Shown: positions 1-41,160 of the stretch, in pieces
Numbering within the stretch: position 1 is the first letter of the stretch
How the letters are laid out: each line of letters starts with the position of its first letter
Virus record (IMG/VR): IMGVR_UViG_3300045598_000011
Origin: a virus
DNA: 41,200 bases
Strand: one strand, 5' to 3'
Translations under genes and position numbers: made by a program
Notes under the pieces: generated by a model
Databases searched by the model: none
Told to the model about the DNA's origin: nothing
The model's input: only the letters and a program-made list of their open reading frames with translations

Positions 1-127
1 TTCTGTGATAAAAAGTGTAATAGCACCTAGAAACGTTGATATAACAGCATTCTTTCATTCTTGGTGCAATATTGGTGCAATGACAGCTATAATTGGGCTA
101 ATTTCCGTTCGATTTCATCGTCCAGTT
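1..127. repeat. Terminal direct repeat, copy 1; identical to 41074-41200 and marks circular closure of a 41,073-bp unit
   Basis: Read directly: the same 127 nt (ttctgtgataaaaagtgtaatagcacc...gatttcatcgtccagtt) occurs at both window ends. Confidence 0.95.
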
Positions 128-1181
128 TATGCTTGTACTCGTCTATTAGATAAGCATAGATGTTGCTGGTCGTTGTCATGTTGGAGTGCCCTAGTCGTTT
201 GCTGATTGCGTAAATATCGATTCCTTGACTAAGCAAATAAGCCACATGAGAATGTCGGAGTGAATGGAACGTGTAGTTGCGTTTGATGATTCCGGCTTTT
301 TTCATTGTCTTTTTTAAGTAGTCGTTCACGTCTGGTGAAATGTTGAAGCTGAAAGATTGCGGGGTCTTGAAGAAAACTAACGGGGTCTTGTTGACTTTCA
401 ATTGTGATAGTATGCGTAACAATTCATCATTAACCCGTATCGTTCGTTTTGAACTCTCGTTCTTAGTAGGCTTAAATCCAGTCATATAATGGTAGTCGAT
501 TGATTTATTAATGCTGATCATGCGGTGCAGGTAGTCAATATCCTTCCATGTCAGCGCTAGGATTTCCGAAAATCTGGCACCGGTATAAATTGCCGTTAAG
601 ATGATGTAAGGCTTGATATTATCCGGTTGTAAATCAGCGTTTAAAGCCTGTATCAGCCGTTTTAACTCGTTAATTGATAGATATTCCGGATTACGGGTTA
701 AAGCCTTGTCATGGACGATATTTGCGTTGTAAGTAAAGTCTTTCGATATAATGCCATCTGCAATTGCTGACTTAACGCATGATTTTATCTTTGATGTTAA
801 ATCTCTCATTGTACCAAGCGAATGATTTTTGCCGTAATCATTTAAAAATGCTTGATACGTGCTGCGCTTAATCTGTTTGATTCGCATAGTGCCAAAATGA
901 TCAACTAAGACACGATAGGCAAAAACGTACCCGCTTGCCGTTGCCTTTGATATTTTTGGCAGTCGATAGGTTTCGTACCACGTTTTAAAATAATCTGCAA
1001 AGGCGGGGTTAATTGATATATCAATCCCGTTTAACAGTTCATTTTCTAGCTTAGTCGCATAGTCCCGTGCTTGCGCTTTGGTGGCAAAACCAGACTTTGC
1101 TTTCTGGTGAAGTTTTCCATTTTCATCATGCCAGCTGATTCTGGCTTGCCATTTTCCGTTTCGTTTCGTAAAAGAAGCCAT
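87..1181 (-). CDS. int: Tyrosine-type site-specific integrase
   Basis: 364 aa. Catalytic signature is GARFSEILAL (Arg), HSLRHSH (His-x-x-Arg) and LGHSNMTTTSNIYAY (His...Tyr). RBS is AAAGGA. It is the first gene of the minus-strand lysogeny block, next to attP-like repeats. Confidence 0.93.
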   Translation of the reverse strand: MASFTKRNGKWQARISWHDENGKLHQKAKSGFATKAQARDYATKLENELLNGIDISINPAFADYFKTWYETYRLPKISKATASGYVFAYRVLVDHFGTMRIKQIKRSTYQAFLNDYGKNHSLGTMRDLTSKIKSCVKSAIADGIISKDFTYNANIVHDKALTRNPEYLSINELKRLIQALNADLQPDNIKPYIILTAIYTGARFSEILALTWKDIDYLHRMISINKSIDYHYMTGFKPTKNESSKRTIRVNDELLRILSQLKVNKTPLVFFKTPQSFSFNISPDVNDYLKKTMKKAGIIKRNYTFHSLRHSHVAYLLSQGIDIYAISKRLGHSNMTTTSNIYAYLIDEYKHKLDDEIERKLAQL

Positions 1182-37091: not shown

Positions 37092-37544
37092 TTGAGTATC
37101 ATTAAGCAACTTGCCGACGGCGGTCCAGCTATGCCATATCATATGCAGTATATGGAACACTTGCATATGCTAGTCGATAACAAAATCGTGTGGCTGTTCG
37201 TCTGGATTGTCGTTGCTGACATTATCACGGGCTTTTTGAAGTCTTTAGTAACAAAGAAAACAAGCAGTCGTAAAGGCACTGATGGCTTGATTCGGCACGG
37301 AGTATTATTGCTGATTATTATCACGCTGTACCCTATGCTTGACATCAACGGCTTTCGAAGCGCCGGCGACACGCTGATTATTTTCTACGTACTTTTCTAT
37401 GCTGTTTCAATCATTGAAAATTTGGGGCAAATGGGCGTACCAGTTCCCGATTTTGTCAAGCAGTATATCTACAAACTAAGTGATGAGTATGTTCACGAAG
37501 ACAATAACAAGGAGGTCAAAAATGGCACGCGAAATCATGATTGA
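37092..37544 (+). CDS. Holin (Holin_4_1 / phi-LC3-like)
   Basis: Hydrophobic helices IVWLFVWIVVADIITGFL, GVLLLIIITLYPML and LIIFYVLFYAVSIIENL. TTG 37092 follows TAGGAG. Alternative Met starts at 37131, 37143 and 37152 could give a dual-start holin. Confidence 0.8.
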   Translation: MSIIKQLADGGPAMPYHMQYMEHLHMLVDNKIVWLFVWIVVADIITGFLKSLVTKKTSSRKGTDGLIRHGVLLLIIITLYPMLDINGFRSAGDTLIIFYVLFYAVSIIENLGQMGVPVPDFVKQYIYKLSDEYVHEDNNKEVKNGTRNHD

Positions 37545-38457
37545 TCTGGCTAGCTATCAAGCTAACCTGACCGCTAACGATTACCGCGCAATTGGCGCTA
37601 CTAAGGCAATCGTTAAAGTTACGGAAAGCACTAACTATGTCAATCCTTATATTCAGAGTGAAGTGAACAACGCTGCTGCGGGCGGTGTTAACGGCTTTGC
37701 GTTCTATCATTTCGGACGTTTCACCAATGACGCCGGAGCGAAGGCGGAGGCCGAGTTTTTCATCGCCAACGCTAAGGCAAAGGCTAATGTTAAACCTGGC
37801 ACGCTGTTAGTCCTTGACGCTGAAATCAACAACATGCCAACGTCAAGCGTGATTGTGTTCCTTGACACGTTGCGTAATGCCGGTTATCACACTGGTTTTT
37901 ACACGTACAAGTATCTGCTACCTAAGTTTGATCTGGAAGCAATCCACCAGCACTGCGATTTCTTCTGGTTAGCTGCATACGTACTAGCAAACGGTAAGGC
38001 AGACGGCAAAGAGCCTAACTTTAACTACTTCCCAAGCGCCAACTATGTTGATGCATGGCAGTACACCGATAACCTGTTAGGCTACAAGGTTGACGGGTCT
38101 ATCACGCTGACTGACAATGCTTTGGCACTGTTTAACCCAACCGAAGTTAAGCAACCGGAACAGCCTGCACAACCGGCTAACAAGCCCGCTGAAACGGTCT
38201 GGAAGGACGCACTGGGCGATGAGTGGCACGCTGAAAACGGCACGTTCACGAGTACAACGGCACTTCATCTGCGGTGGGGTGCTAAAGTAACCGCAACGTC
38301 AATCGCGGTCTTGCCTTCTGGTAGCTTGATTAAGTATGACGCATGGAGCCGTCATAACGGGTTCGTTTGGCTGCGTCAACCACGTGGCAACGGTCAGTAT
38401 GGCTATCTAGTATGCCGAAACGCTAACACTGGTGAGCCTTACGGCACTTTCAAATAA
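37522..38457 (+). CDS. Endolysin: GH25 muramidase plus a C-terminal SH3b-like wall-binding domain
   Basis: MAREIMIDLASYQ..., a Pro/Gln linker KQPEQPAQPANKPAE, then SH3b-like ...LHLRWGAKVTATSIAVLPSGSLIKYDAWSRHNGFVWLRQ. RBS AAGGAGG. Confidence 0.9.
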   Translation: MAREIMIDLASYQANLTANDYRAIGATKAIVKVTESTNYVNPYIQSEVNNAAAGGVNGFAFYHFGRFTNDAGAKAEAEFFIANAKAKANVKPGTLLVLDAEINNMPTSSVIVFLDTLRNAGYHTGFYTYKYLLPKFDLEAIHQHCDFFWLAAYVLANGKADGKEPNFNYFPSANYVDAWQYTDNLLGYKVDGSITLTDNALALFNPTEVKQPEQPAQPANKPAETVWKDALGDEWHAENGTFTSTTALHLRWGAKVTATSIAVLPSGSLIKYDAWSRHNGFVWLRQPRGNGQYGYLVCRNANTGEPYGTFK

Positions 38458-38514: not shown

Positions 38515-39576
38515 ATGGAACAATTAATTTTTTATCCACGTGTCATCAAAGTCGATGACACAGACCGCACTATTAACGTCATAGCGCTTGTTAATGATGA
38601 ACGGCTAGAATTTACCGATGACATGACTTACACGCTGAAACTGGGCAATCAGAGCGGTTATATTAAGGATATAGCTTTAACCCAACCGGCATTTAGCAGT
38701 CAGAAACTTAAAGGCTTGCCGTCTGATATGTATACCGCCGAGCTTTGGGTTACGAATGGCGACAAAACAAGAATCTATCCTAACAAAGATAAGGGCTATC
38801 TGGGATTGCAAGCTAATATAACGGCAATGGTTGGCGAAGTGCTGCCAACACTAACAGTTAGCGAAATCAAAGCTGAAATCGAATCTAAGTTGAAAAACGT
38901 GGGTAGCGGTGGCACTGGTGAAAAAGGAAATGACGGCAAAAGCGCATATCAAATCTGGCTTGATGCGGGCAACAAGGGTACGCAACAAGACTTTCTGAAT
39001 AGCTTGAAAGTTAAAGGCGATCCCGGCAGTAACGGAAACGATGGCAAGAGTGCATATCAAATCTGGCTTGATGCGGGCAACAGCGGAACAGAGCAAGACT
39101 TTATCAACAGTCTTAAGGCGCCGAGTGTCGCACCTTCAAAACGTGCTGCGACAAGCCTTTTTGTTGATATGAACGATTCAAAAAATATCATAGGTCGGTT
39201 CGACAATGGCTGTTGGGTTGAAATGCGGACAATGGCAAGCTGGGTCCCGTTGTATGCAACTGGTTCAGCTGGCTATGGTAGTGTAACTTTACAATCGTTT
39301 GTGCACGATCAATGCTGGTGTAACGTTCTATCCTATATCAACGGTTTTATGACCGTAAGCGCAATGCAAAAAGCTACACCAGCGCAGTTCGAGTTGTGGA
39401 AGTCCTGCGTGGTGCATGAACCATATGCTGATGTTGATCAGTACGATTGGAGCGCTTGCCGTATCACGTCAACCGGTAGCGATGTCGGCGAAGTCGATTT
39501 TGCAAAAATGATGTTTGCGGTCGGCTTGTTCAGCGAAAAAACGATCTTATCTTTGGGTGCAGTTAAAAAATCATAG
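38515..39576 (+). CDS. Post-lysis accessory protein with a duplicated fibre-type motif GNDGKSAYQIWLDAGNxGTxQDFxNSLK
   Basis: 353 aa, RBS AAGGGAG, its own terminators on both sides. Cys/Trp-rich C-terminal domain. Confidence 0.7.
   Translation: MEQLIFYPRVIKVDDTDRTINVIALVNDERLEFTDDMTYTLKLGNQSGYIKDIALTQPAFSSQKLKGLPSDMYTAELWVTNGDKTRIYPNKDKGYLGLQANITAMVGEVLPTLTVSEIKAEIESKLKNVGSGGTGEKGNDGKSAYQIWLDAGNKGTQQDFLNSLKVKGDPGSNGNDGKSAYQIWLDAGNSGTEQDFINSLKAPSVAPSKRAATSLFVDMNDSKNIIGRFDNGCWVEMRTMASWVPLYATGSAGYGSVTLQSFVHDQCWCNVLSYINGFMTVSAMQKATPAQFELWKSCVVHEPYADVDQYDWSACRITSTGSDVGEVDFAKMMFAVGLFSEKTILSLGAVKKS
38926..39130. repeat. Tandem duplication with a 108-bp period inside 38515-39576
   Basis: CATATCAAATCTGGCTTGATGCGGGCAACA occurs from 38945 and again from 39053. 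The flanks have diverged. Confidence 0.85.
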
Positions 39577-39582
39577 TGTTTA

Positions 39583-39607
39583 GTCCTAGCTACGGCTAGG
39601 GCTTTTT
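39583..39607 (+). terminator. Terminator GTCCTAGC-tacg-GCTAGGGC plus TTTTT
   Basis: Read directly (one G-U pair). Confidence 0.8.
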
Positions 39608-39622
39608 CTTTTTGCTTTCTTT

Positions 39623-39651
39623 TTGACAGTGCGTATAAACATTGATATATA
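39623..39651 (+). promoter_or_regulatory. Near-consensus promoter TTGACA-17 nt-TATATA with an extended TGn
   Basis: TTGACA is at 39623-39628, TG at 39643-39644 and TATATA at 39646-39651. Confidence 0.65.
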
Positions 39652-40018
39652 GGCATTTTTAACCGTTAGATTCTTTTTGTTTTCTTTTGCCCAAAGCACG
39701 CAAAAAAGCGCTCAAAGGAAGATATCCAATCAGACATTACGTTTTGGCTTGGAGTTGCGAGTTTCCTAGTCAGCCTGTGTGGTACTTTCTTTAAGCGCTA
39801 AGCGGAAGATAGGGTGAGAGCTAAAGCTCAAACCCTTATTTCCGTATATCATAACATACGGAGGGTTAAAAGTTGAAGCTGCGAAAATTTGGGGGCTTAA
39901 TGAAAGTTACGTTAAAACGAGCTTACGGCAAAGCAAACAAAAATGGCCTGAAGGTTCTTATCGGAAATTTGGGCATACTTTGGTAGTAACAACTGCGGGA
40001 ATGGAAGCTGTAACTGGC

Positions 40019-40037
40019 ATTAAAGATCCACGTAAAA
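40019..40037. repeat. 19-bp perfect direct repeat ATTAAAGATCCACGTAAAA, copy 1
   Basis: Identical to 40910-40928. Lies 4 nt upstream of the -35 of the 40042 promoter. Confidence 0.9.
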
Positions 40038-40041
40038 TACG

Positions 40042-40071
40042 TTGACATTTATTAATGACGTAAGCTAAAAT
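40042..40071 (+). promoter_or_regulatory. Promoter TTGACA-18 nt-TAAAAT
   Basis: TTGACA is at 40042-40047 and TAAAAT at 40066-40071. Confidence 0.6.
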
Positions 40072-40152
40072 GAAATGGCAGGTAGAAGTACGCTGTATAC
40101 TCGTGGAAATCGAATTAACGTTTAAGCGGCATCTAATGTCGTCGATCACGAG

Positions 40153-40177
40153 GACCGCCTTTGGGGCGGTTTTTTTA
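40153..40177 (+). terminator. Intrinsic terminator (G)ACCGCC-tttgg-GGCGGT plus a T-run, about 5 nt upstream of the DUF3800-like gene RBS
   Basis: Read directly. The ORF-track TTG start at 40161 lies inside this hairpin. Confidence 0.8.
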
Positions 40178-40193
40178 TTATGAGGTGTCTAAC

Positions 40194-40889
40194 GTGGATA
40201 TATACGTTTACTCAGATGAATCTGGGGTATTTGACAAAGATAATAATGATTTCTTTGTTTATGGTGGTTTGATGTTCTTATCTAAAAACGATCATGAAAA
40301 TTGGAAAAGAAAATACCTAAACGCAGAGCGAACTATCAGAAAAATTGAACGATTGCCCAAAAAAGTAGAAGTAAAGGCAACAGCTATTTCAAATAGTTCA
40401 AAAGGTAAGCTTTATAGATCATTAAATCATACTGAAAAATTCGGCGTTGTTGTTCATGAGAAAAAGGTTCATCCTAAAATATATACTGATAAAAAGTCGA
40501 AGCAAAGATATCTTGATTATGTTTATAAAATAGGCGTGAAAAGAAAATTTGAAAATTTGATTTCGAGAGGCTTAATTATTCCTGAAGAAGTTGAAAATAT
40601 CTATTTCTTCGTTGATGAGCACAATACTGCTACTAATGGTATTTATGAGCTTCAAGAAGGATTAGAACAGGAATTTAAAAAGGGTACGTATAATTATAAT
40701 TGGCAGAAGTACTTTCCACCAATTTTCCCATCTGTATGTAGTGTGCGAGTTAATTATTGCAATTCTGAAAAAAAGACGCTTATTCGTTCAGCGGATATCA
40801 TTGCTAATAGATTACGCTTTTACGCAACACAAAATAACTTGTATACCTTTAACAAAAAAACTGAAATAAATGTTGTTTGCCAACCATAG
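40194..40889 (+). CDS. DUF3800-like protein
   Basis: GTG start 6 nt after GAGGTG. The N-terminus (M)DIYVYSDESGVF and the late ...LIRSADIIANRL fit the DUF3800 DESG and xxAD motifs as I recall them. 231 aa. Confidence 0.6.
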   Translation: MDIYVYSDESGVFDKDNNDFFVYGGLMFLSKNDHENWKRKYLNAERTIRKIERLPKKVEVKATAISNSSKGKLYRSLNHTEKFGVVVHEKKVHPKIYTDKKSKQRYLDYVYKIGVKRKFENLISRGLIIPEEVENIYFFVDEHNTATNGIYELQEGLEQEFKKGTYNYNWQKYFPPIFPSVCSVRVNYCNSEKKTLIRSADIIANRLRFYATQNNLYTFNKKTEINVVCQP

Positions 40890-40909
40890 AAAATATTCAA
40901 CTATGGATA

Positions 40910-40928
40910 ATTAAAGATCCACGTAAAA
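40910..40928. repeat. 19-bp perfect direct repeat ATTAAAGATCCACGTAAAA, copy 2
   Basis: Identical to 40019-40037. Lies between the DUF3800-like stop and the terminator. Confidence 0.9.
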
Positions 40929-40936
40929 AATAAAGC

Positions 40937-40966
40937 GGTCGTCTTATGACGGCCGTTTTTTTGTGC
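40937..40966 (+). terminator. Terminator CGGTCGTC-ttat-GACGGCCG plus TTTTTTT
   Basis: Read directly (one G-U pair). Confidence 0.8.
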
Positions 40967-41160
40967 AATGAAAGTGCAACGGGTTAAAAAACTATAGATC
41001 ACTCTAAAACAGCTTTTATCGTATTTTAAACATGTAACGGGTTTCTTAAAAACTATATATCAGTAAATGAAAGTTCTGTGATAAAAAGTGTAATAGCACC
41101 TAGAAACGTTGATATAACAGCATTCTTTCATTCTTGGTGCAATATTGGTGCAATGACAGC
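40963..41160. other. Candidate attP region with arm-type repeats downstream of int (continues as 1-86)
   Basis: GTGCAAT/GTGCAAC at 40963 and 40974. AACGGGTT..AAAAACTATA.ATCA at 40978-41001 and 41036-41062. TTGGTGCAAT twice at an 11-bp period (41134-41154, equal to 61-81). Confidence 0.5.

Follow-up and report, generated by a model that had tools for sequence, protein, structure and literature searches.

A mobile phage cassette of a DUF3800-I RNA and a DUF3800 gene inserted into an older, now broken operon

Two unrelated layers at the prophage end

The window, that is, the whole 41,200-nt stretch of viral DNA that was analysed (IMG/VR record IMGVR_UViG_3300045598_000011), carries a cassette in the moron position expected from the original prediction, at the prophage end, with a tail-fibre-like ORF and the att region as neighbours. 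The late operon of the tail-fibre-like ORF is closed by an intrinsic terminator on the plus strand (bp 39582–39603; 9-bp stem, T tract, z -5.6) that lies outside the cassette. Beyond it, the interval consists of two unrelated layers: what is left of three small genes, now decayed, and a mobile cassette of about 0.9 kb that is intact. A promoter, an ORF-poor structured stretch, a second promoter with its leader, a terminator with the gene behind it and a final terminator had been predicted to form one insulated unit; all of these elements were present at their places, but only the third and fourth parts, with the gene, belong together.

Debris of an older operon

A promoter-like sequence (TTGACA-17-TATATA, with a TG at the extended -10) was located on the plus strand at bp 39623–39651, as predicted. 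It was left unreported by the consensus scan because its -10 hexamer, TATATA, does not end in the conserved T. The sequence is 89–93% conserved in two sibling prophages of Limosilactobacillus fermentum (loci L011 and L015), where its counterpart lies upstream of a real operon promoter, and it belongs to that older operon, broken in the window, rather than to the cassette. In both siblings, an intact operon for a 41-residue membrane peptide (42 codons including the stop), a 27-aa membrane peptide and a 70-aa HTH_59 protein occupies the place of bp 39652–40041 of the window. Alignment revealed that the window has two deletions relative to this operon, of 86 nt and 131 nt. With the 86-nt deletion, at bp 39690/39691, the promoter, ribosome-binding site and start codon of the larger membrane-protein gene were lost, and a 5′-truncated remnant of the gene (codons 6–41 plus the stop) is left on the plus strand at bp 39691–39801. 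The 131-nt deletion, at bp 39870/39871, eliminated the ORF of the 27-aa peptide along with the first 12 codons of HTH_59, and residues 13–70 of 70 persist as a plus-strand HTH_59 pseudogene at bp 39872–40045 (PF20038, E 8.7e-12, profile positions 12–62 of 66). Between the two remnants lie two plus-strand hairpins (bp 39811–39836 and bp 39839–39864; together bp 39811–39864), more stable than shuffled sequence (z -3.7). Their elements AGGGT, AACCCT and GGGTT had been placed correctly by the original prediction, but the L011/L015 alignment identified them as hairpins between cistrons of the old operon. The second hairpin, together with GGAGGG at bp 39860–39865, corresponds to the former Shine-Dalgarno region of the now-deleted 27-aa peptide gene, and the 37-codon basic mini-ORF suggested to follow it (bp 39873–39986) turned out to be an out-of-frame artefact in the +1 frame of the HTH_59 remnant.

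The alignment indicates that the debris is an old moron operon (promoter, membrane protein, membrane peptide, HTH_59 and terminator) broken by two deletions. It was correct that this region is poor in ORFs, the longest plus-strand ORF between bp 39577 and 40160 having at most 37 codons; the stretch of 0.4 kb looks ORF-poor and structured because it holds the remains of a broken moron operon, and it does not represent a structured RNA gene. A structured RNA of about 0.4–0.5 kb that starts from bp 39623 and works jointly with the DUF3800 protein and its leader RNA is barely conceivable: the region does fold somewhat better than shuffled sequence (z -2.6) behind its promoter-like site, but it aligns base for base, apart from the two deletions, with the three protein genes of L011 and L015, and it translates to an HTH_59 domain; alignment with decayed protein genes in relatives is an outcome that the original prediction itself had named as refuting it. 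In addition, it is missing from 12 of the 16 sibling cassettes (L001–L010, L012 and L013) and from all 80 distant loci, and it lies outside the insertion as bounded by empty-site relatives. An Rfam search of the debris region gave no family match; ar15 on the minus strand (bp 39806–39908) reached 28.8 bits against a threshold of 40 and was discarded, sub-threshold Rfam matches being regarded as chance.

Insertion of the cassette

Comparison with two empty-site relatives (L253 and L254) revealed an 891-bp insertion in the window (bp 40038–40928, plus strand), missing in both, with a 19-bp target duplication. The left direct repeat, ATTAAAGATCCACGTAAAA, is located at bp 40019–40037 on the plus strand and forms the 3′ end of HTH_59, the insertion point being in the last codons of that gene; the right copy is at bp 40910–40928 on the same strand. 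The inserted DNA contains a promoter, a DUF3800-I RNA, a terminator, the DUF3800 gene and the second repeat copy, and has a GC content of about 30% versus about 45% in the adjoining phage genes. Since the cassette was inserted into HTH_59, its linkage to HTH_59 is limited to L. fermentum, where the only sequence common to all 16 sibling loci corresponds to bp 39998–40961, the loci being otherwise unlike in lysis genes and integration sites. The predicted final terminator (bp 40932–40962, plus strand, z -5.1) is present, but it predates the cassette: the empty-site comparison assigns it to the ancestral HTH_59 operon, and today it closes the putative DUF3800 transcript as well.

Flanking repeats of 17–21 bp were also found at two other loci, L036 and L065. 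Target duplications as a general feature were nevertheless rejected, as they were present in only 3 of 72 loci. It was also noticed that the cassette adjoins MazEF in the sibling prophages, and that some viral contigs have HicA in its place.

The DUF3800-I RNA

The second promoter of the original prediction, a sigma-70 promoter (TTGACA-18-TAAAAT, bp 40042–40071, plus strand), matched the consensus at 11 of 12 positions. Its -35 box overlaps the new stop codon of HTH_59, and transcription is predicted to start near bp 40078. A covariance search against Rfam identified bp 40071–40181 on the plus strand as a DUF3800-I RNA (RF02969), with 94.9 bits against a gathering threshold of 44.2 bits, E 5e-14 and the model covered from position 1 to 115 of 115. 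The RNA is composed of a P1 hairpin, a long-range CTCGTG/CACGAG helix around two hairpins, and a GC-rich terminator hairpin, the long-range helix and the terminator both having been foreseen. This intrinsic terminator (bp 40150–40178, plus strand) constitutes the 3′ end of a predicted transcript of about 100 nt and must be read through for the gene to be expressed, a ribosome-binding site and start codon lying 4–15 nt beyond it.

Covariation analysis of 69 independent relatives, which the original prediction had proposed, detected compensatory changes in 20 of 28 consensus pairs, and the unpaired nucleotides of junctions and loops were extremely conserved. As anticipated, no tandem repeats were found between bp 40042 and 40193, the RNA being a single structured unit. 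The alignment of the 69 RNAs contained no hypervariable guide-like segment, and loops alone varied; for this reason, and with the promoter abutting P1 and the terminator abutting P2, a guide-RNA reading was rejected. In a heuristic folding test of the 69 sequences, no competing antiterminator pairing was conserved, on which ground a riboswitch-type antiterminator was likewise dismissed. When the 3′ arm of the terminator was blocked in silico, the 5′ arm was unpaired in 46 of the 69 sequences and the upstream fold was unaltered.

The DUF3800 protein

As predicted, the terminator is followed by a ribosome-binding site (GAGGTG, bp 40182–40187, plus strand) 6 nt ahead of a GTG start codon. The latter, 13 nt beyond the end of the RF02969 match, opens a plus-strand gene for a 231-aa protein (bp 40194–40889), whose suspected membership of the DUF3800 family was borne out by HMM search: PF12686 gave 48.1 bits (curated cut-off, 21 bits), E 2.6e-12, over profile positions 1–148 of 149, and phrog_30113 gave E 1.9e-80. 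The AF2 model of the protein had a pLDDT of 90.6, and every one of its top 22 PDB fold matches was an RNase HII, H2 or HIII (lowest E 1e-5; TM about 0.5), although the sequence-level PDB search gave no match with either the single protein or the profile. The model suggests that the protein has an RNase HII-like fold and is a predicted nuclease. Acidic residues D8, E9, D141, E142 and D201 are invariant in the alignment, as is H143. The protein also has a basic patch, KKxKQRYLD. The motifs described for DUF3800 are an N-terminal DE and a C-terminal QxxD (PMC7736814); D8-E9 and D201 are invariant, whereas the Q position is taken by an invariant R198 in the phrog_30113 subfamily (RxxD).

No meaningful match to the protein was obtained among the PADLOC defence models, and no retron model matched. 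Comparison with the ToxN, CptN, TenpN and Abi_2 families was also negative, with DUF3800 alone matching, in line with the prediction that the family differs from type III toxins. A DNA search of the GenBank phage collection yielded a single weak match, and a protein search of it three Streptococcus Javan phages (34–50% identity). In the search of genome contigs, relatives were recovered with a protein alignment but not with the single protein.

Architecture and distribution among relatives

The cassette was always found in phages, situated after the lysin gene, between the TerL and portal genes or in a replication module, and it spans several phyla at just 50–60% protein identity. At 78 of 79 testable loci from diverse genomes, the RNA lies directly upstream of the DUF3800 gene on the same strand, in the order promoter, RNA, terminator, ribosome-binding site and gene, with no space for a second promoter between RNA and gene. 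The same was true of 28 of 29 metagenome loci, in which the RNA is directly upstream; the lone exception was a contig identical to L063. Promoters of the relatives had a median score of 10/12 and their -10 end was fixed at one model position in 72 of 76, an SD-like site was present in 71 of 76, and the T tract was separated from the start codon by a median of 18 nt, with 35 nt or less in 73 of 76. That the gene can be transcribed only by terminator read-through, as had been proposed, holds for the window and for 73 of 76 distinct relatives, the architecture being read from sequence. An all-against-all comparison of flanking ORFs from 80 loci detected no other conserved gene; the commonest family occurred at only 8 of the 80, and a third conserved protein component was rejected on this basis.

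Only one of the 79 loci, L063, has the gene without the RNA, in place of which five direct repeats of about 21 nt are found upstream. Their interpretation as a ToxI-type array was abandoned, since the pattern gave only single chance matches in viral contigs. In L232, whose protein is the most closely related (84% identity), the RNA is normal, and L063 was treated as a probable one-off rearrangement. The RNA is found alone more often: 23 of 64 copies have no DUF3800 gene, and the intact orphans keep promoter and terminator, with no such gene within several kb.

Comparison with known systems

The original prediction had found no described system of this composition. The RNA is, in fact, RF02969, a family named after its association with DUF3800 (PMC5737381), and the pairing of RNA and gene was already reported by Weinberg et al. 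in 2017, who put forward no hypothesis on it (PMC5737381). The cassette is therefore of a known kind, a DUF3800-I RNA with an RNase H-like DUF3800 gene, and nothing about it is new in kind. Its RNA is a family member with all helices and the 3′ terminator, adjoined by the DUF3800 gene (PMC5737381). In the 2017 survey, DUF3800-I RNAs occurred on either side and in either orientation of DUF3800 genes and were rarely 5′ UTRs (PMC5737381), whereas the phrog_30113 subfamily combines a strict promoter-RNA-terminator-gene order (78/79) with separate orphan RNAs. Within the literature searched, no experiment on any DUF3800-I/DUF3800 pair was found. For the cassette, the identity of the RNA, the family and fold of the protein, the insertion boundaries, the promoter-RNA-terminator-gene architecture and the phage context are established.

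The layout resembles most closely that of AbiF/RCd22, a system of the phi027 prophage of Clostridioides difficile (PMC12373285). Both are prophage-borne and consist of a promoter (SigA in AbiF/RCd22), a structured RNA without repeats, an intrinsic terminator, a ribosome-binding site and an effector gene. AbiF/RCd22 gives rise to a short RNA as well as a read-through mRNA; the RCd22 RNA neutralises the AbiF toxin whether supplied in cis or in trans, and the terminator alone lowers gene expression 17-fold (PMC12373285). The AbiF/RCd22 RNA is about 100–130 nt long, and its motif was discovered in the 2017 bioinformatic screen that also yielded DUF3800-I. The proteins, however, are different: AbiF is an Abi_2/AbiD/F protein, HEPN-like and related to Cas13, whereas that of the cassette has an RNase H fold in its model. 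Both the abiF motif (RF03085) and Abi_2 were unmatched in the cassette, so that the layout alone is common to the two; and toxicity and neutralisation have been demonstrated for AbiF/RCd22, whereas they are predicted for the cassette.

The predicted likeness to type III toxin-antitoxin systems (ToxIN, CptIN and TenpIN) is real, with AbiF/RCd22 as an experimental precedent for a non-repeat RNA (PMC12373285), and concerns architecture only, namely the order of promoter, RNA, terminator and gene (PMC3401426, PMC5086642). Type III systems keep the RNA in excess over the toxin, cause abortive infection and are frequent on mobile elements (PMC3401426, PMC5086642). In contrast to them, the cassette RNA has no tandem repeats, and the protein is not a ToxN-like endoribonuclease. 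Type VII retrons, consisting of a reverse transcriptase, an ncRNA and DUF3800 (PMC7736814), share with the cassette a Pfam DUF3800 effector with an RNase H2-like fold and a structured nucleic-acid partner, in their case in a defence setting. Unlike them, the cassette has no conserved reverse transcriptase beside it (80 loci) and no retron model match, and the partner is a plain RNA that has a promoter and a terminator to itself. In IscB elements, which are mobile, a conserved structured RNA, the omega-RNA (formerly HEARO), is located just 5′ of a gene for an RNase H-fold (RuvC) nuclease; the omega-RNA contains a variable guide segment, whereas DUF3800-I does not. Further defence settings in which DUF3800 domains occur are Cas12a2/a3 loci (PMC10910872, PMC13594972) and the Cas13-associated CASK operon, counted in favour of a defence role; the DUF3800 protein of the CASK operon is Csx32 (bioRxiv 10.64898/2026.08.25.746378).

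Possible workings of the cassette

AbiF/RCd22 is the closest proven analogue, and we therefore prefer to read the cassette as a type III-like RNA-antitoxin/nuclease-toxin defence module carried as a phage moron, a reading with slightly less than an even chance. Its mechanism, including RNA-protein binding, toxicity, neutralisation and a defence phenotype, we infer from the anatomy of the cassette and the AbiF/RCd22 precedent. In a lysogen, the promoter would yield mainly the short terminated RNA, and a minority of read-through transcripts would give a small amount of nuclease. The RNA would bind the nuclease through those nucleotides of its junctions and loops that are unpaired and highly conserved, and keep it inactive, while the terminator would additionally limit nuclease synthesis in cis. 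An infecting phage that stops host transcription or degrades the RNA would free the nuclease, which may then cut RNA or RNA/DNA hybrids, so that the infection is aborted or the element is otherwise stabilised. The asymmetry between gene without RNA (1/79) and RNA without gene (23/64) was counted in favour of this antitoxin/toxin reading; it is equally expected if the RNA region is merely the sole source of a promoter. A cofactor role would likewise agree with RNA in excess over protein. Against the module reading are the lack of a PADLOC match, the single-unit RNA and the lack of a ToxN, CptN, TenpN or Abi_2 endoribonuclease.

Alternatively, the RNA may be a cis-acting leader or attenuator whose terminator is conditionally bypassed in response to a phage signal, a ligand or a protein, perhaps DUF3800, with no role in trans beyond setting DUF3800 expression. 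Such a leader would be placed as the RNA is, immediately ahead of the gene on its strand (78/79 loci) and separated from it by a terminator; the 17-fold effect of the AbiF/RCd22 terminator also speaks for it. We consider it unlikely, as no terminator-competing pairing is conserved, the upstream fold remains the same with the terminator prevented, and intact orphan RNAs with promoter and terminator persist where no DUF3800 gene lies within several kb; a riboswitch role was also deemed improbable by Weinberg et al. (PMC5737381).

It is possible, too, that the nuclease needs the RNA as its scaffold or cofactor, not as an inhibitor, in a ribonucleoprotein that attacks invading nucleic acid, for which the RNase H-like fold of the modelled nuclease and the extreme conservation of unpaired RNA nucleotides, suggestive of a protein-binding platform, could be cited. 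RNA partners of such kind are the omega-RNA for IscB/TnpB and the guides for Argonaute, and the HEARO motif, a precedent, was first an orphan motif beside a nuclease gene and only later the IscB guide RNA. In type VII retrons, too, DUF3800 domains have structured nucleic acids as neighbours (PMC7736814). However, the cassette RNA varies only in its loops and has no hypervariable guide-like segment, and the strong terminator would produce a large RNA excess that a cofactor does not need, making this explanation decidedly unlikely. Highly improbable is a selfish nuclease gene that spreads among phages in a homing-like manner, its RNA serving expression or mobility and not defence. The precise 891-bp insertion with its 19-bp duplication, the 17–21-bp repeats at L036 and L065, insertions that separate conserved phage genes (TerL from portal, for example), and the occurrence in several phyla at only 50–60% protein identity would agree with it, but flanking duplications exist in just 3 of 72 loci, the target site is not conserved, an RNase HII-like fold is not known as a homing-endonuclease fold, and toxin-antitoxin and defence morons are equally promiscuous in distribution.

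Implications

The purpose of DUF3800-associated RNAs has been a standing question since 2017, and DUF3800 nucleases recur beside retrons, Cas12a2/a3 and Cas13 without an assigned activity. The locus described here is a compact test object with exact 891-bp bounds in a tractable lactic acid bacterium, for which empty sites provide natural controls, and it supplies a concrete, falsifiable model patterned on the proven AbiF/RCd22 system. If the antitoxin/toxin model is true, RNase H-fold nucleases would be further effectors restrained by RNA antitoxins, and a function would be found for an entire group of orphan RNA motifs. We tentatively suggest, with the balance of probability somewhat against it, that DUF3800-I and the RNase HII-like DUF3800 protein constitute a new type III-like toxin-antitoxin/abortive-infection family, in which the antitoxin is a structured RNA without repeats and the toxin has an RNase H fold, both in a self-contained cassette of about 0.9 kb carried by temperate phages of several phyla. 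If so, the msDNA of type VII retrons and all eleven RNA motifs associated with DUF3800 may, by extension, be cognate nucleic-acid "locks" for DUF3800 nucleases, and the orphan RNA copies in phages could serve as anti-defence decoys.

Identity of the RNA and the protein

The window was recognized as a temperate phage from its integrase and endolysin genes, a tyrosine integrase gene (87–1181, minus strand) being found by homology search and a GH25/SH3_5 endolysin gene (37480–38457) by domain and homology searches. A tail-fibre-like ORF of 353 aa (38515–39576) lies 3′ of the endolysin, an unusual position, and a segment (GNDGKSAYQIWLDAGN.GT.QDF.NSLK) is duplicated within it. The original prediction had placed a five-part RNA-protein unit at 39623–40966, and every sequence element it listed was found at 39582–40962: the late-operon terminator (39582–39603), a TTGACA-17-TATATA motif (39623–39651), about 0.4 kb downstream of it with no plus-strand ORF above 37 codons, two hairpins (39811–39864) more stable than shuffled controls (z −3.7), a near-consensus promoter (40042–40071, 11/12 matches), a folded leader closed by a CTCGTG/CACGAG helix, a GC-rich terminator (40150–40178), a GAGGTG ribosome-binding site followed by the GTG start (40194) of a 231-aa ORF, and a final terminator (40932–40962, z −5.1). 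The first promoter was present as a motif but was not listed by the consensus scan, because the conserved last T of the −10 hexamer is missing.

The sole above-threshold Rfam match in the whole window was the DUF3800-I RNA (RF02969), which occupied the leader at 40071–40181 (94.9 bits vs a threshold of 44.2) with the full model covered, terminator hairpin included; the 0.4 kb upstream gave no such match. The 231-aa ORF was assigned to Pfam DUF3800 (E 2.6e-12), as had been predicted, and to phrog_30113 (E 1.9e-80); its best protein match was annotated in Limosilactobacillus fermentum. This kind of element is therefore already known (RF02969 plus PF12686), and the claim that no system of such composition had been described does not hold, the pair being known since 2017, when the motif was named for its association with DUF3800 genes (Weinberg et al. 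2017, PMC5737381). In that study, self-cleavage was not found, a riboswitch role was considered improbable and explicitly no functional hypothesis was offered (PMC5737381). Later papers describe DUF3800 as an RNase H-fold domain located beside type VII retrons, Cas12a2/a3 loci and a Cas13-associated kinase operon, with no activity reported for it in these settings. The literature searched contained no later experiments on the RNA.

A decayed operon upstream of the cassette

Base-level alignment with two relatives carrying intact copies (L011:4808–5365 and L015:532–1089) revealed a former operon at 39652–40041, consisting of a good promoter, a gene for a 42-aa membrane protein, two intercistronic hairpins, a GGAGGG sequence with a gene for a 27-aa membrane peptide, and a gene for a 70-aa HTH_59 protein (PF20038). 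In the window, only a decayed remnant (39691–40045) is left: the first gene has lost its promoter and codons 1–5 to an 86-nt deletion at 39690/39691, and 131 nt comprising the entire 27-aa gene and the first 12 HTH_59 codons have been deleted at 39870/39871, while frame 39872–40045 still encodes HTH_59 residues 13–70 (Pfam E 8.7e-12). Hence, what had been taken for a structured RNA gene of about 0.5 kb is the debris of three protein genes, and alignment to a degraded protein gene in relatives was the very outcome named beforehand as speaking against it. Read in the +1 frame, the HTH_59 remnant gives the 37-codon basic mini-ORF. By the same alignment, the hairpins at 39811–39864, previously read as mutually exclusive structures of that RNA, are old intercistronic structure round the ribosome-binding site of the lost gene.

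The older operon, a moron operon of sibling prophages, is also disrupted by two deletions in the related locus L016. Its 42-aa protein has a basic N-terminus and one membrane helix; its 27-aa hydrophobic peptide, whose Shine-Dalgarno sequence lies within a hairpin, resembles type I toxin genes.

Insertion of the cassette

A 19-nt perfect direct repeat (ATTAAAGATCCACGTAAAA) was found at 40019–40037 and 40910–40928. Querying viral contigs with the predicted uninterrupted junction gave two matches, L253 and L254, each consisting of the window left junction through the repeat and the right junction from the repeat on (alignment; blastn). In L254, an intact HTH_59 gene (…GIKDPRKK, stop) leads directly into a terminator equivalent to 40932–40962; L253 has the same junction but a decayed HTH_59 gene. 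Therefore, 1) the cassette is an 891-bp insertion (40038–40928) with a 19-bp target duplication, 2) its −35 box creates a new HTH_59 stop codon, and 3) the terminator at 40932–40962 is older than the cassette and is not, as originally assumed, part of the unit. The cassette has a GC content of about 30%, vs about 45% in adjacent phage genes. Flanking repeats of 17–21 bp were also noticed at L036:3753/4723 and L065:3846/4759, the only two others among 72 loci.

Identical or near-identical DUF3800 proteins occur in many L. fermentum prophages with differing lysis genes and integration sites, and 39998–40961 is the only part of the window common to all 16 L. fermentum loci (blastn), which have upstream of this block either the lysin directly, a MazE/PemK pair or the 70-aa HTH_59 gene. 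The MazE/PemK toxin-antitoxin pair was seen between the endolysin and the cassette in four of these prophages (L009:4747–5426, L010, L012 and L013). Accessory modules appear to be stacked at this prophage end. Near this end (40983–41062 and 41134–41154), two 15-mers 61 nt apart (AAAAACTATAGATCA and AAAAACTATATATCA) and a tandem 11-mer (TTGGTGCAATA) could represent the att region or arm sites for the integrase; homology with host-flanked prophage copies stops at 41086, and L010, L015 and L016 switch to host DNA nearby.

Conservation of the RNA-gene unit

Scanning with the protein alignment, one genome per species, yielded 80 loci (49–61% identity) from Clostridia, Lactobacillales, Negativicutes, Spirochaetes, Sutterella/Burkholderiaceae and Bacteroidales. 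Of the 79 loci with room for it, 78 have DUF3800-I immediately before the gene in the same orientation (Rfam and nhmmer), and a metagenome set added 28 loci with the RNA. Among 76 distinct sequences, the best −35/−10 pair had a median of 10/12 matches (7.5 in shuffled sequence), the −10 ended at one fixed model position in 72, an SD-like site was present in 71, and the T tract preceded the start codon by a median of 18 nt (at most 35 nt in 73). The fixed promoter position and the short distance from T tract to start indicate that the gene has no promoter of its own, and its transcription would, on this architecture, have to pass through the terminator, which supports the earlier proposal of expression by read-through only. 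Since no flanking protein family recurred (the commonest in only 8 of 80 loci), the conserved unit is the RNA and the gene, nothing else.

All annotated neighbourhoods examined were phage, with cassettes lying 3′ of the endolysin gene, between the genes for the large terminase subunit and the portal protein, or within a replication/methylase module. In distant loci, the DNA within 1–2 kb of the cassette includes a group II intron domain fragment (L034:4806–4919), an RNase P RNA gene (L093:2103–2467) and several tRNA genes (L017, L026, L030, L033, L034 and L066), consistent with integration hot spots. The only locus with the gene but without the RNA (L063:1089–1211, same contig as L223) has upstream instead five direct repeats of about 21 nt (AAACCACAGnAAnTGACAAAG, spacing 22–29 nt) and a T tract; no second example of such an array was found, and its nearest relative has a normal RNA.

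RNAalifold on 69 independent sequences recovered the Rfam fold, with compensatory changes in 20 of 28 pairs and almost no broken pairs. Its most conserved nucleotides are unpaired (GCAGG, GCUGUAUAC, CGAA, GUUUAAGCG and UGUAAU), as would suit a protein-binding or tertiary platform, and no hypervariable guide-like stretch was seen in the alignment. Blocking the terminator 3′ arm left the 5′ arm without a partner in 46 of 69 sequences and did not alter the fold upstream, so by this heuristic test a conserved antiterminator is absent.

A pattern from the conserved core detected 64 RNA copies in viral contigs with at least 300 nt downstream. The gene follows immediately in 41; in the other 23, the whole locus is devoid of a DUF3800 gene, even by HMM search (among L100–L167, e.g. 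L102:1819–1922, L112:4109–4192 and L135:2041–2143). These orphans appear to have arisen by deletion or replacement; stubs of the gene persist in some (MDLFVI or MNELM, then stop), and seven have a 3′-truncated RNA, with a HicA toxin gene as the first downstream ORF in six. In L135, a second RNA copy precedes a serine recombinase. The orphans may be relics, or they may have a function such as that of an anti-defence decoy.

Possible function of the cassette

The AlphaFold2 model of the DUF3800 protein was confident (pLDDT 90.6), and its best 22 PDB fold matches were RNase HII, H2 or HIII without exception (TM about 0.5, E down to 1e-5); at sequence level, no PDB match was obtained. Invariant residues are D8 and E9 at the end of strand 1, the D141-E142-H143 stretch at the end of strand 4, D201 in the C-terminal helix and a KKxKQRYLD basic patch, and we infer that the acidic ones are the counterpart of the RNase HII DEDD active site.

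The closest proven analogue is the AbiF system of the C. difficile phi027 prophage, in which a SigA promoter, a 100–130-nt structured RNA with terminator, a ribosome-binding site and abiF follow one another and transcription yields a short RNA as well as a read-through mRNA (PMC12373285). This RNA, RCd22, carries the abiF motif, found in the same 2017 screen as DUF3800-I; it binds and neutralizes toxic AbiF in cis and in trans, and its deletion raises abiF expression 17-fold (PMC12373285). Only the layout is common, the RNA and the protein being different, and membership in the AbiF system was rejected, as was membership in type VII retron systems. The cassette is not a classical type III member either, because a repeat array is absent and the protein is not ToxN-like; the lack of tandem-repeat RNA and the difference from ToxIN had been correctly pointed out. 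On the shared layout, our preferred though tentative reading is a type III-like module, in which the abundant RNA would keep a scarce RNase H-like nuclease inactive and infection would upset this balance, releasing the nuclease from inhibition.

The gene occurs without RNA in 1 of 79 loci vs RNA without gene in 23 of 64 copies, an asymmetry that fits a toxin that cannot be retained without its RNA and is equally expected if the RNA region merely holds the only promoter. A purely cis-acting leader is rather unlikely. We consider it improbable that the RNA serves as nuclease cofactor in a ribonucleoprotein, and quite improbable that the cassette is a selfish mobile nuclease. The five-part unit, with its upstream RNA now assigned to protein-gene debris, is hardly credible. 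The original observation is partly confirmed and its interpretation partly supported.

The present analysis contributes the precise limits of the insertion, the strict order of promoter, RNA, terminator and gene in this DUF3800 subfamily, its exclusively phage context in the annotated neighbourhoods together with orphan RNA copies, and the link to a validated mechanistic precedent in AbiF/RCd22. The locus makes the function of the DUF3800-I/DUF3800 pair directly testable.
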